A stretch of DNA of 61,015 bases from Sulfurospirillum sp. (GCA_016735235.1 JAERRW010000079.1:1-61015), one strand, 5' to 3'. Shown: positions 2,140 through 58,074, counted from the first letter of the stretch. Notes: generated by a model not told the origin, from the sequence alone. Translations and numbers: made by a program.

Positions 2140-2343
2140 AGTTTTTGATAAAGTGCCACCTTTAGACTAGGAGATTTAAATAATATTACATGTAACTGAA
2201 GCAAGTTATATAAATTCAAAAAACATCTATTTTTTCAACATCTAAAACAAGTTGACGAATTTAAGAAGTTTCGTGTTAATAAAACATTAGTTTGGGATAA
2301 CAGAGCAGATATAGCACCTGAATATTTACACGATAAAGTATAA
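2138..2343 (+). pseudogene. Remnant of a DUF4160/DUF2442 toxin-antitoxin-like pair
   Basis: EVFDKVPPLD* (DUF4160-like C-terminus), then GGAG RBS and IILHVTEASYI, then out of frame FFQHLKQVDEFKKFRVNKTLVWDNRADIAPEYLHDKV* (DUF2442 W.NGAD.APE.L motif). Confidence 0.65.
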
Positions 2344-2361
2344 CAAAACCAACTATGGATC

Positions 2362-2387
2362 ACAAACCCCTTAGATAAGGGGTTTGT
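2362..2387 (-). terminator. Hairpin downstream of groEL (likely intrinsic terminator)
   Basis: ACAAACCCCTTA-GA-TAAGGGGTTTGT perfect inverted repeat about 20 nt after the groEL stop; U-tract is weak. Confidence 0.7.
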
Positions 2388-2405
2388 AGTGGGTTGTGTA
2401 GGTAT

Positions 2406-4043
2406 CTACATCATACCGCCCATTCCACCCATACCGCCCATGTCTGGCATAGCCGGTGCTGGTGCTTTATCTTCTTTTATGTCGCTAATAGTAGCTTCGG
2501 TTGTAAGAAGTAGACTAGATACCGATACAGCATTTTGAAGTGCAATACGAGAAACCTTTACAGGATCAACAATACCAGCTTTAAACATGTCAACATACTC
2601 ACCATTTGATGCGTTGAAACCATAAGTATCACTATTTTTCATTTGAACATTGTTTACAACAACACCTGCATCAAATCCAGCATTTAGTGCTATTTGTTTC
2701 ATAGGAGCTTGAAGGGCACGACTTACTATATCGGCTCCTATTGCTTCATCGCCATGAAGTGTAAGATTAATTTTAGAATTTGCTAAAATAAATGCTACAC
2801 CGCCACCAATAACTATGCCTTCTTCTACTGCTGCTTTGGTTGCACTTAGTGCATCATCAACTCTATCTTTTTTCTCTTTCATCTCTGTTTCAGTAGCAGC
2901 ACCAACTTTTATAACCGCTACTCCTCCACTTAGTTTTGCTAAACGCTCTTGAAGTTTCTCTTTATCGTAATCGCTACTAGTTTCTGCTATTTGAGCCTTG
3001 ATCTGTCCTACTCTTTCAACTATTTTCTTTTTCGTACCAACACCTTTTACTATAGTAGTATTGTCTTTATCTATAATAATAGAGTTTGCTTCTCCCAAGT
3101 CATCTATAGTAGCACTCTCTAAAGTACGCCCTAGCTCTTCACTTATGACTTCACCACCAGTAAGAATTGCAATATCTTCAAGCATAGCTTTTCTTCTATC
3201 ACCAAATCCTGGAGCTTTAACAGCAGAGATATTGAGAACACCTCTTAATTTATTGACTACTAAAGTTGAAAGTGCTTCACCATCTATATCTTCAGCTATG
3301 ATTAAAAGTGGTCTGCTACTTTTTTGAACCTGCTCTAATACAGGAAGAATATCTTTTAAATTTGATATTTTTTTATCAAACAACAGTATATATGGATTCT
3401 CTAAAATAGCTTCCATTTTTTCTGCATTTGTAACAAAATAAGGAGACAAATAGCCTCTATCGAACTGCATGCCTTCAACAACATCTAGTTCATCTTGAAT
3501 ACCTTTTGCCTCTTCAACAGTTATAACACCATCTTTTCCAACTCTCTCCATAGCTTCAGCTATAAGCCCACCAATATTTGCATCGGAGTTAGCAGAAATA
3601 GTTGCCACTTGAGCAATCTCTTTTTTATTTTTTACATCTTGAGCTATTTTTTTTAACTCTTTTGTTATAGCTTGACTTGCTTTATCCATACCTCTTTTTA
3701 CTTCAATAGGATTTGCACCAGCTGTAATATTTCTCAACCCTTCTTTAAAGATAGCATGTGCTAAAACAGTTGCGGTTGTGGTCCCATCTCCAGCTTCATC
3801 AGCTGTTTTAGATGCTACCTCTTTTACAAGTTGTGCACCCATGTTCTCTAGAGTCTCTGCTAGTTCTATCTCTTTTGCTACTGAAACACCATCTTTAGTG
3901 ATGCTAGGAGCACCAAAACTTTTCTGTATAAGTACATTTCGTCCTCTAGGACCCATTGTCACTTTTACTGCATCATTTAACTTTTTTACGCCTTCGTATA
4001 GTGTATTGCGAGCACTATCTGAAAATTGAATCTCTTTTGCCAT
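2406..4043 (-). CDS. groL: Chaperonin GroEL
   Basis: MAKEIQF start, GDGTTTAT motif, [10 protein letters not shown] tail. Confidence 0.99.
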
Positions 4044-4055
4044 TTTTACCAATCC

Positions 4056-55204: not shown

Positions 55205-55289
55205 TTAGATTTAGAAGTGAATTTTAATATTTTAATATTTTTTACAGTTAAATAATAATACACTTCAACAATATATTAATTTAAAAAGG

Positions 55290-56714
55290 TTGATTGTGTT
55301 TTATTTTTTAATATCTTTAACAGCATTAATACTCGGATACTTTATTTATGGATCGTTTGTCGATAAATTTTTTGGCTCAACTGACAATGAAAAGACTCCT
55401 GCAAATACATTAAAGGACGGTGTTGATTTTGAACCAATGCCAAAATATAAAGTTTTACTAATTCAAATTTTAAACATAGCAGGAGTAGGTCCTATATTTG
55501 GTCCTATTTTAGGAGTTTTATATGGTCCTATCGCACTAGTTTGGATTGTGATCGGCTCTATTTTTGCTGGCGCTGTTCATGATTATTTGAGCGGAATGTT
55601 ATCAATTAGAAACAAAGGTGTAACAGTTCCAACTTATACCGTTAAGTATTTAGGTAAATGGAGTAGTTGGCCTATAAGAATCTCTACATTACTTTTACTC
55701 TTTTTTGTAGGAGTTGCTTTTATTATGGCACCTGCAAGACTTCTACATGGTCTATTTGACAATATAAGTGTTCAAATATTTATTTTAATAATATTTGCTT
55801 ACTATTTTTTAGCTACCATTTTACCAGTTAATAAAATAATTGGTAAGTTGTATCCTATTTTTGGTGCTATGCTTATTGTTATGTCTGTACTTCTTTTAGT
55901 AGCTTTAGGATTTAGTGAGCATGAATTTTATGCTATTGCTAATGACGGTTTTTTTACTAGCTATCATCCAAATGATTTACCAATATGGCCTCTTATGTTT
56001 ATTACAATTGCATGTGGAGCAATTAGTGGATTTCACTCAACCCAATCACCAATAATGGCAAGATGTGTACAAAATGAAAACTCTGGTAAAATGATATTTT
56101 ATGGCGGAATGATAGCCGAGGGAGCAATAGCACTTATATGGGCTACTTTGGCTATGAGTTTTTATCCAACAGTTGAGGCACTATTTGAAGTAACATCAAC
56201 CCAATCACCAGCGGGCGTTGTGAGTGGAATATCTTTTGGACTTCTTGGAGGCATTGGAGGGACTTTAGCGGTTATTGCAATTATAATACTACCAATTACA
56301 AGTGGCGATACTGCTTTTAGAAGTATACGACTTACTCTTTCAGAAATTTTTAGCATAGGACAATCTAAAGCGATGCAGCGATTAGCAATAGCTATTCCAC
56401 TTTTCATAATAGCATTTTTTATGACTAAGAATGATTTTGATGTAATATGGAGATATTTTGGTGTTACTAATCAACTACTAGCTTCTATAATGCTATGGAC
56501 AGGTGCCGCTTATTTTGCTTCTAAAGGCAAATCTCATTTGATGGCATCTTTACCTGCAACTTTTATGAGTGCTGTTTGTATAACATATTTAGCAATGGAT
56601 AAACAGTTAGGATTTGGGATTGAGTATGTTACTTCAACCTATATTGGCATAATTGGTGCTGTAGCACTTTTTATTGCTTTTGTATATTTTTATGTTAAAA
56701 AACCAAATTTATAG
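55290..56714 (+). CDS. cstA: Carbon starvation CstA family transporter
   Basis: IAGVGPIFGP, GAVHDY, IACGAISGFHSTQSP. Confidence 0.9.
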   Translation: MIVFYFLISLTALILGYFIYGSFVDKFFGSTDNEKTPANTLKDGVDFEPMPKYKVLLIQILNIAGVGPIFGPILGVLYGPIALVWIVIGSIFAGAVHDYLSGMLSIRNKGVTVPTYTVKYLGKWSSWPIRISTLLLLFFVGVAFIMAPARLLHGLFDNISVQIFILIIFAYYFLATILPVNKIIGKLYPIFGAMLIVMSVLLLVALGFSEHEFYAIANDGFFTSYHPNDLPIWPLMFITIACGAISGFHSTQSPIMARCVQNENSGKMIFYGGMIAEGAIALIWATLAMSFYPTVEALFEVTSTQSPAGVVSGISFGLLGGIGGTLAVIAIIILPITSGDTAFRSIRLTLSEIFSIGQSKAMQRLAIAIPLFIIAFFMTKNDFDVIWRYFGVTNQLLASIMLWTGAAYFASKGKSHLMASLPATFMSAVCITYLAMDKQLGFGIEYVTSTYIGIIGAVALFIAFVYFYVKKPNL

Positions 56715-56854
56715 TTAAAAAATATAATATATTTTTTAAAATAGCGGTGGCTTTATAGCCTTTAGTTCAATTTTTAAATTTTATTTTAATCTTTCAATAT
56801 TAATGAAAATAAAAATGGAAAACAAAAAGAGATTTATTTCTATGGAAAACAAAA

Positions 56855-58057
56855 ATGAAAAACAAGACACAATACCTTTTTACAAGCGAAGTAGTAAGCC
56901 CCGGACATCCCGATAAATGTGCAGATATAATTTCAGATAGTATCGTCGATACTCTTTTAATAGCAGATAAAAATTCACGCGTGGCAAGCGAGGTTTTTAT
57001 TGCTGGTAAACATGTTATTATTGGCGGAGAGGTAGCAAGCCAAAATCACCCAAATTATGAAGAGATAGCAAAACAAGCATTAGTAAAAATAGGGTACGAC
57101 GGAAAATCTGCTTTCTCAAAAGAGCAGTGTTTGTATCCAGAAGATGTTAAGGTTCAGGTTCTTTTAAATCAACAATCATCAGATATAAATCAAGGTGTAG
57201 ACCAAGAGACAGGCGAAATAGGAGCAGGCGATCAAGGCATCATGTTTGGTTTTGCTTCAAATGAGACAAAAGAGTTTATGCCCGCGGCCATTATGTATGC
57301 TAGAATTTTAAGCAATAAAGTATATGAGTATGCCTTAAAAAATAATCAAAAACTCGGAGTCGATATTAAGACACAAGTTACCGTCGATTATACTACTAAA
57401 GAAAATTTTGAAAATTGTAAACCTCAAAAAATACACACTATAGTAGTGTCCGCTCCTTCAACTCAATCAATGGCAATAGAAAAAGTAAGAGTACTCATAA
57501 AAAGCCTTATCGATAGTGCGGGTCTTCCAGTAGAGCTTTATAATCCACATGATACTATTATTCACATAAACCCAACAGGACGCTATGTAAACCATAGCCC
57601 ACTTCATGACTCAGGGCTTACAGGACGCAAACTCATAGTCGATAGTTTTGGCGGATACTCACCAATAGGCGGTGGAGCGCAATCTAGTAAAGATTATACA
57701 AAAGTAGATAGAAGTGGTCTTTATGCGGCACGCTGGATAGCTAAACACATAGTGGCATCAAAATTAGCAAAGAAATGCTCGGTTCAACTCTCATACGCTA
57801 TTGGTGTTTCTAAACCAGTTTCAGTTAGTGTAGATACTTTTGGAACATTCACATGTAAAGATGATAACATGTTGTCGGATTTTGTTTTGTCTACATTTAG
57901 TTTAACTCCAAAGTGGATTACTGGTAAATTTGGTTTAGATAAGCCAAGTAAAGAGACTTTTCTTTATGCCGATGTTGCTGCTCGTGGACAAGTTGGACAG
58001 AGTGATTATCCTTGGGAGCAATTAGATTCATTGGAGATATTTACCGCTTTAAAATGA
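56855..58057 (+). CDS. metK: S-adenosylmethionine synthetase
   Basis: FTSEVVSPGHPDK, GAGDQG, GGGAQSSKD. Confidence 0.98.
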   Translation: MKNKTQYLFTSEVVSPGHPDKCADIISDSIVDTLLIADKNSRVASEVFIAGKHVIIGGEVASQNHPNYEEIAKQALVKIGYDGKSAFSKEQCLYPEDVKVQVLLNQQSSDINQGVDQETGEIGAGDQGIMFGFASNETKEFMPAAIMYARILSNKVYEYALKNNQKLGVDIKTQVTVDYTTKENFENCKPQKIHTIVVSAPSTQSMAIEKVRVLIKSLIDSAGLPVELYNPHDTIIHINPTGRYVNHSPLHDSGLTGRKLIVDSFGGYSPIGGGAQSSKDYTKVDRSGLYAARWIAKHIVASKLAKKCSVQLSYAIGVSKPVSVSVDTFGTFTCKDDNMLSDFVLSTFSLTPKWITGKFGLDKPSKETFLYADVAARGQVGQSDYPWEQLDSLEIFTALK

Positions 58058-58074
58058 TGTACATGTAAATTTAA

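Follow-up and report, generated by a model that had tools for sequence, protein, structure and literature searches.

The contig JAERRW010000079.1 (positions 1-61015) of the Sulfurospirillum sp. assembly GCA_016735235.1, called the window here and analysed over its whole length of 61,015 nucleotides, is studded with the palindromic octamer TACATGTA. It is contig C34 of a genome (G000) of 1.51 Mb and 30.5% GC. The octamer is kept by selection or drive and belongs to a series of lineage-specific words built on one A-Y-G core. The findings support the view that this selection or drive works on the DNA itself, imprinting the proteome, as the initial annotation had proposed in preferring selection or conversion at the DNA level to codon choice: the excess survives shuffling, the proteome carries its mark, and the sites are kept in orthologues. 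As to function, the word may be a self-recognition signal for DNA uptake or recombination that favours kin DNA in natural transformation, a reading for which belief and doubt are about evenly balanced.

Abundance of the octamer and its imprint on proteins

G000 holds 447 copies of TACATGTA, 10-13 times the expectation from Markov models of orders 1 to 3, and the octamer is the top-ranked 8-mer under order 3. Its core, ACATGT, occurs at 1536 sites (3.8-fold). The enrichment first noticed in the window thus holds in the rest of the genome. The coding portion was examined with 1367 open reading frames (ORFs) from a simple ORF caller and 30 shuffles per model. These ORFs contain 387 octamers, compared with 128 ± 8 when synonymous codons are shuffled and the protein is kept, and 33 ± 6 when codon order is shuffled. 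Because the observed count exceeds both, codons and residues alike have been bent towards the octamer, and the excess persists under codon- and protein-preserving shuffles. Consistently, LHV (5.8-fold) and TCK (5.2-fold) are the two most over-used tripeptides of the G000 proteome.

Within the window, 30 exact copies lie between 2187 and 58067, compared with 1.44 expected and a maximum of 5 in 100 dinucleotide shuffles. The initial annotation had counted 29 and expected about 2.5; the excess stands, while both figures are revised. Another 27 copies carry a mismatch at a terminal base (14 + 13, versus 2-10 at each inner position), in line with the roughly 25 reported. As had also been noted, nearly all sites are coding: 28 of the 30 fall in ORFs, in three frames, and give L/I/V-H-V (23 sites), T-C (3) or Y-M-Y (2), leaving the copies at 2187 and 58060 intergenic. 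The exact copies of TACATGTA are as follows.

2187..2194, intergenic
4586..4593, ORF 4447-5922(+), VHV
4763..4770, ORF 4447-5922(+), LHV
5042..5049, ORF 4447-5922(+), LHV
7349..7356, DRT4-like reverse transcriptase 6104-7744(-), IHV
8604..8611, ORF 8018-8683(+), LHV
14633..14640, priA, LHV
14936..14943, priA, LHV
16224..16231, ispG, IHV
16917..16924, ispG, IHV
18804..18811, comEC, LHV
19026..19033, comEC, LHV
22949..22956, ORF 22891-24069(+), LHV
27182..27189, ORF 25999-27906(-), YMY
27781..27788, ORF 25999-27906(-), LHV
28713..28720, PIF1-like helicase 27941-29254(+), LHV
30158..30165, ORF 29676-30191(-), LTC
32350..32357, ORF 30291-32855(+), LHV
33443..33450, ORF 32855-34051(+), YMY
36254..36261, ORF 35761-37347(+), LHV
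39111..39118, ORF 38135-39469(+), LHV
41758..41765, ORF 41690-42742(-), LTC
41906..41913, ORF 41690-42742(-), LHV
49128..49135, folP, LHV
51179..51186, ligA, LHV
51785..51792, ligA, LHV
52679..52686, ligA, LHV
54087..54094, ORF 53656-54510(+), LTC
54203..54210, ORF 53656-54510(+), IHV
58060..58067, intergenic, 2 bases past the metK stop, between convergent genes

The reverse transcriptase among these genes resembles the antiviral DRT4 type (NF041749, 392 bits, cut-off 450) and is adjoined by an AAA_21 and RloB-like pair at 8727-10620. Elsewhere in G000, on contig C69 (about 12690-13450), an array of clustered regularly interspaced short palindromic repeats (CRISPR) has a repeat that itself contains TACATGTA; its 12 copies supply 12 of the 447 genomic sites. 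The gene beside it is presumably Cas9-like. The presence of the word in this repeat may reflect chance or amelioration of the repeat.

Could the abundance simply follow from the codons or amino acids in use, or from biased mutation, for instance if methylated ACGT is deaminated? ACGT is nearly absent from G000 (0.08 of expectation), and its decay could feed ACAT and ATGT. However, the 15 other ACATxy words stand at 0.48-1.22 of expectation, the shuffles fail to reproduce the excess, and the word is abundant in genomes ranging from 30 to 49% GC. Furthermore, in the motif-rich relative G006, ACGT is normal (1.09) yet TACATGTA is enriched 18.6-fold, on which ground ACGT deamination was rejected as the cause. 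A by-product origin is hardly credible.

Orthologues of G000 genes were compared in G006 (136 pairs; 400 kb of 2.86 Mb sampled; median identity 78%) and in G017, a relative with a different word (134 pairs; 400 kb of 2.38 Mb sampled). In G006, the exact octamer was retained at 33 of 46 aligned sites, and where the three residues were unchanged, 14 of 17 sites were identical in DNA, compared with 5962 of 21685 other triplets (27.5%). In G017, by contrast, the octamer was retained at none of 32 aligned sites, and residue identity at the sites was 41% versus a background of 68%. This complete loss, together with the weak residue conservation, indicates that the DNA word overwrote permissive protein positions; LHV is not conserved equally in relatives through codons that break the octamer.

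The sites are spread evenly over the G006 chromosome, with no focus at origin or terminus: each of the 20 samples taken round it has between 4 and 17 sites per 20 kb. Density drops with gene conservation measured against G017 (5.1, 2.7 and 0.8 per 10 kb; the series measured against G006 is not monotonic). It also falls, from 4.6 to 1.5, as the codon score points to higher expression. In all, 43 highly expressed genes (ribosomal, polymerase, ATPase) contain 2 sites versus 11.2 expected. Likewise, 22 prophage genes of G000 contain none (4.7 expected) and 47 restriction or defence genes contain 12 (20.8 expected). Conversely, 44 genes of replication, repair and recombination contain 30 versus 19 (1.58-fold; P 0.012), and comEC, comF and dprA together contain 5 versus 0.7. 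Most of these gene-class labels are presumptive, being assigned from N-termini; those verified are polA, priA, dnaB, holB, uvrB, ligA, comEC and the AddAB nuclease domains, with comF below the cut-off.

The end bases of the word are relaxed in G000. The strict octamer is enriched 18.6-fold in G006 and 12.3-fold in G195, no single mismatch exceeds 1.4-fold there, and terminal mismatches are not enriched (0-1.1-fold); their enrichment (3.3-4.1 times expectation) is a trait of the window's lineage. As a consequence, ACATGT is denser in G000 than in G006 (1.02 versus 0.65 per kb). Both G006 and G195 show a wider preference, CTY-TACATGTA-RAG, joined in G006 by an A-rich stretch at -5 to -9, and the two flanks vary independently of each other. 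Close pairs of sites (8-40 bases apart) numbered 19 and 13, versus 4.6 and 3.5 under random placement; a local-jitter control gave 9.5 and 6.5, with maxima of 21 and 16 that exceed the observed values. Spacing is clustered (coefficients of variation 1.22 and 1.16, versus 1.06 and 0.99 at random), and no 10.5-bp helical phase was found among 128 short spacings. Perfect stems of at least 8 bp occur at 11 of 33 non-coding versus 12 of 172 coding sites in G006, several of the non-coding ones just past stop codons, and at 6 of 47 versus 23 of 384 in G000; the other dialects have few stem-borne sites. Some site pairs have extended perfect inverted flanks (C13:6703 and C61:2046 in G000; L184 and L198 in G006), also within coding DNA. 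Such pairs might arise by template switching, which would set a second copy beside the first.

Carriers of the word and its dialects

Among the best 80 IspG matches listed, the nearest named relative is Sulfurospirillum arcachonense (85%). By such resemblance the window's family (f1) is likely Sulfurospirillaceae. A second family (f16) is likely Sulfurimonadaceae, on the ground that its genomes and named Sulfurimonas loci have a dialect in common. Both families are free-living kin of Campylobacter. With rich defined in the f1 survey as at least 150 copies of TACATGTA, 24 of 27 f1 genomes are rich (22 of 24 relatives and 2 of 3 further genomes); the exceptions are G017 (28), G021 (27) and G217 (109). 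In f16, 27 of 121 genomes are rich, and they are concentrated in certain groups: g66 (4/4), g67 (3/3), g68 (4/4), g78 (1/1), g49 (10/11) and g21 (5/25), with none in g52 (0/24), g63 (0/12), g69 (0/12) or g59 (0/9). In a phylum sample outside these two families, all 266 genomes were at background (at most 50 copies). Nine of the best 80 named loci are clearly rich, at 32-49% GC, and two loci named Sulfurospirillum have no copy. These survey counts describe a pattern among kin that are not independent and carry no statistical test. In a ComEC tree, rich genomes are dispersed over both families and have motif-poor genomes for close sisters; this unrooted, single-gene tree fits an old shared word that has repeatedly decayed and changed.

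Some of the TACATGTA-poor relatives carry substitute words instead: CTCACGCA, ACACGCAA, AAACGCCA, ACATGCCA, CTCACGTG and TATCATGA. Observed versus expected counts are 205 versus 46 for TATCATGA in G017 (400 kb), 37 versus 2.2 for CTCACGCA in G039 (80 kb), 22 versus 1.0 for the same word in G075, 19 versus 1.1 for AAACGCCA in G049 and 33 versus 0.9 for ACATGCCA in G244. Genome-wide, CTCACGCA is rich in 3 of the 121 f16 genomes (G039, 962; G064, 630; G075, 759), each of which holds at most 27 copies of TACATGTA. A survey of 63 named loci of at least 9 kb added CTCACGCA in L096 and L118, ACACGCAA in L088, AAACGCAG in L108, AAACGCCA in L093, CACGTGAG in L090 and CACATGCC in L123, the last titled Sulfuricurvum (7-17 copies versus 0.1-0.6). 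No such word was found in the named loci of Sulfuricurvum (except L123), Arcobacteraceae, Sulfurovum or Nitratifractor. The top words of L117, G033, G027 and G037 were left out of the dialects; they resemble local repeats or codon effects.

Eight of the words align on the A-Y-G core with a score of 121, compared with 82.7 ± 6.5 for letter-shuffles, none of 5000 of which reaches it; since the words were picked by eye beforehand, from kin, this is not a strict probability. The G017 word likewise lies at poorly conserved residues (41%, 17 sites). A switch between palindromic and asymmetric words occurs within one genus. The palindrome, named in the initial annotation, is not an essential trait: sister lineages use non-palindromic variants.

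The asymmetric words also bear on the idea of a Chi-like recombination hotspot read by AddAB. In its favour, addA and addB each contain 5 copies, a per-gene count that no other gene of the genome exceeds. Chi sites, however, are oriented with replication, and the asymmetric words are unbiased by strand (26 to 26 and 10 to 10), the G039 word showing its 26 to 26 in an 80-kb stretch of uniform GC skew. Such a hotspot is therefore quite improbable.

Methylation, competence and the search for a reader

The initial annotation had drawn an analogy with two methylase-centred systems, the cyanobacterial highly iterated palindrome HIP1 and the methylated RAATTY of Campylobacter jejuni. In the corresponding model, the word would be marked by an orphan methylase, CATG being one possible target, and then ratcheted up in frequency through methyl-directed repair or methyl-dependent uptake. 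The word does contain CATG, and the window encodes a D12-class adenine methylase (47695-48705), to which enzymes in 19 of 24 family genomes are related; a resemblance points to a putative specificity for CATG. HIP1 and RAATTY are themselves methylation-dependent (10.1101/2024.09.10.611283; PMC10046745).

Nevertheless, searches with five Pfam classes (5 genomes per search; the window's D12 enzyme in 41 genomes) revealed no methylase common to motif-rich genomes. The D12 enzyme is present in the motif-poor G017 and G021 (28 and 27 copies), and the query was unmatched in four rich genomes, G001, G009, G012 and G018 (295-1128 copies; G009 is 79% and G018 86% complete). The single-contig G195 (611 copies) has no match to PF01555, PF00145 or PF02086; its PF02384 matches are three frames of 504-659 aa, read by their length as type I subunits, and weak ones to a 232-aa frame. 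G015 has no PF01555 or PF00145 match; apart from D12 enzymes, its methylases amount to a partial type I-like frame and a long IIG-like one. By length, the PF07669 and PF02384 matches of both genomes look like type I or IIG enzymes. PF01555, the presumed class of the C. jejuni enzyme CtsM, was unmatched in 3 of 5 motif-rich genomes searched (G015, G195, G323). In neither G006 nor G195 is CATG as such enriched, and it does not occur in the CACG and AACG dialects. In addition, genomes lacking the word show no rise in RAATTY, and no either/or pattern emerged in 31 samples. The methylase-centred analogy is thus not supported, and a methylation-driven word is improbable. HIP1 membership was likewise rejected, no shared methylase having been found: the word is not HIP1.

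The D12 gene of the window belongs to an insertion between holB and folP (45688-48708(+)) that also encodes a C5 methylase and an EcoRII-C-like nuclease, and it occupies several different places in relatives. G000 as a whole has more than 20 methylase-domain matches in 1.5 Mb and strongly avoids, besides ACGT, the sites GGCC, CTGA/TCAG, GTNAC, GCGC and GATC.

A competence reader offers a different account. The precedents are the DNA uptake sequences (DUS) of Neisseriaceae and the uptake signal sequences (USS) of Pasteurellaceae; two sources describe DUS dialects with a 3-base core, permissive sites and terminator pairs (PMC3630211; 10.1101/2025.10.24.684340). The even judgement given to the uptake or recombination signal rests on the resemblance to this pattern, namely dialects with a three-base core, permissive placement, stem pairs and absence of strand bias, and on the existence of selective uptake in this order: C. 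jejuni shows sequence-selective uptake (PMC10046745). In the proposed mechanism, a sequence-specific reader would prefer word-bearing DNA; fragments bearing the word would recombine more, and molecular drive would then carry new copies to all places that the protein allows. With a changed reader, the word would shift and dialects would result, and loss of reader specificity would let it decay, as may have happened in genomes with 60-340 copies. Two features of the window are relevant.

13858..14340, + strand, prepilin-type protein with N-methylation motif, just upstream of priA; candidate reader whose tree does not follow the dialects
18677..19915, + strand, comEC, inner-membrane DNA channel (PF03772)

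The presence of comEC means that transformation machinery is encoded. The position upstream of priA is that of the C. jejuni uptake protein Cj0683 (PMC10046745). The window has two prepilin-type genes before priA (13308-14340(+)), and relatives have one to three variable copies. ComEC is found in 51 of 52 genomes, a FimT-like pilin in 28 of 30, a pilin before priA in 29 of 30 and a PilW-like protein in 29 of 30.

Several results count against this reading. Competence genes are equally common in motif-less genomes, and none of eight candidate reader or competence proteins tracks the motif. Five pilin-type proteins (24-29 genomes each) do not follow the dialects; among the candidates rejected, the trees of the pilin before priA and of ComEC (27 of 30 aligned, full frames only) do not follow them, nor do the sequences of three minor pilins of C84. 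The presence of ComEA does not track the word. A search for a short ComEA frame found none in the motif-rich G015, G016, G020, G023 and G336. No clear substitute word was seen in 43-80 kb of G021, G217, G192, G213, G317, G045 and G200, nor, more generally, in 38-80 kb samples of many motif-poor genomes. When addA, addB and polA are left out, the bias towards maintenance genes is gone (16 versus 16.8; 0.95-fold), a bias weaker than that of DUS and USS. The non-coding share of sites is 11-16%, whereas about half of DUS and USS lie in terminators (10.1101/2025.10.24.684340). Three viral contigs that match G000 proteins (two related prophage, one other; query-selected) have 4-7 copies. Finally, DUS and USS have a known or predicted reader, whereas none was found here.

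One rejected candidate is the FimT-like pilin (G000 C81:1793-2515; L200-L227), which is hypervariable and bears the motif GRP(x)RG; a quick tree of it places rich G015 as sister to motif-less G021. Its alleles cross families, G195 grouping with G187, G000 and G006 (97 in the Shimodaira-Hasegawa-like approximate likelihood ratio test, quick tree), and many assemblies break just past the gene; together, these features hint at allele swapping. As for viruses, the scan used the 14-bp extended word and covered 123 stretches. The multi-copy stretches L470, L479, L483, L487, L489, L504 and L537 have clustered TTTACAC/TGTAAAG repeats containing that word; L483 and L487, the two tested, have no matches to G000 proteins, and the repeats look like unrelated elements of the replication-iteron type.

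The main rival is a binding site for a cytoplasmic chromosome protein, such as a nucleoid organiser, a loader of condensin or topoisomerase, or a factor that assists repair or recombination, with sites every 2-3 kb and dialects tracking changes in its recognition surface. A palindrome with independent preferences on both sides suits a dimeric protein equally well, which again tells against a competence reader. The preference extends over 12-14 bp, the sites are evenly spread round the chromosome and mostly coding, and the word is not linked to the presence of competence genes. On the other hand, spacing is clustered rather than regular and lacks a helical phase, many close relatives do without the word, and palindromic and asymmetric forms interchange within one genus. 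A candidate of this kind is a helix-turn-helix-coiled-coil protein (G000 C52:31903-32553; L434-L463), which we take to be RacA-like. It is largely confined to the two families (30 of 30 of their genomes, 2 of 7 others), but it was rejected as reader because its recognition helix is the same in all dialects and in motif-less genomes. In complete genomes its gene maps close to the chromosome start, and f16 genomes often have a second copy. A cytoplasmic protein is unlikely, though less so than the other rivals. Of the initial proposal of a self-DNA mark, a version like DUS and USS survives as the best reading, without the methylase analogy.

Comparison with known systems

The system is real and lineage-wide, and it appears to be undescribed in print. 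By title or abstract, none of the papers listed treats TACATGTA as a bacterial genome word, and ACATGT was not found as a word of Sulfurospirillum or Sulfurimonas, in a search that covered mainly non-subscription literature, and the accessible text of PMC1939737 makes no mention of Campylobacter, epsilon or Thiomicrospira. A more ambitious proposal, tentative and with doubt slightly outweighing belief, is that it would constitute a third independent family of uptake sequences: a methylation-free self mark, 8 bp long, that Sulfurospirillaceae and Sulfurimonadaceae would use in at least six dialects, with a competence reader whose specificity would switch inside a genus and thereby raise gene-flow barriers among Campylobacterota of vents, sediments and aquifers. 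Dialect-bearing uptake sequences are known from only two bacterial families. Gains, decays and switches among close relatives provide pairs (G179/G239, G290/G192 and G195/G039) with which to hunt for the reader and to separate drive from selection. The system may also point to the step by which C. jejuni selects its own DNA, might make dehalogenating and sulfur-oxidising strains easier to transform, and could supply a genome signature for binning.

The RAATTY mark of C. jejuni, methylated by CtsM, comes from the same order and serves selective uptake that relies on a pilus system of type II/type IV, parts of which (ComEC and the pilin before priA) are also in the window; by inference only, RAATTY and ACATGT both fit RMATKY. 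Unlike that degenerate 6-mer, the word here has 8 bp, and the Pfam class assigned to CtsM is not general among the rich genomes searched. HIP1 (GCGATCGC; methylases DmtA and DmtC), whose function is still debated, is likewise a most enriched palindromic octamer, mostly coding and conserved beyond the need of the protein, with variants in some lineages and abundance lost in scattered ones. It differs in sequence, in its methylases, for which no shared counterpart was found here, in spacing that is quasi-periodic rather than clustered, and in that the variants here include non-palindromes. HIP1 is also a cyanobacterial word, while the nearest named relatives of the window, among the matches listed, are Sulfurospirillum.

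The DUS of Neisseriaceae (reader ComP) and the USS of Pasteurellaceae (predicted reader ComN/PpdA) come closest. The differences, beyond those weighed above, are a different phylum, an unrelated sequence whose commonest form is palindromic, and one word shared by two families while a single genus has several dialects. Although the word is not classed as a member, its role being putative and its reader not found, it shares with them hundreds to more than 1000 copies (447 in G000, with relatives reaching 1780), lineage variants that keep a short core unchanged (A-Y-G here, CTG in DUS), permissive coding positions on both strands with a proteome imprint, and perhaps also paired copies that fold into stems behind genes. 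Taken together, these likenesses suggest that the word most likely works as DUS and USS do.

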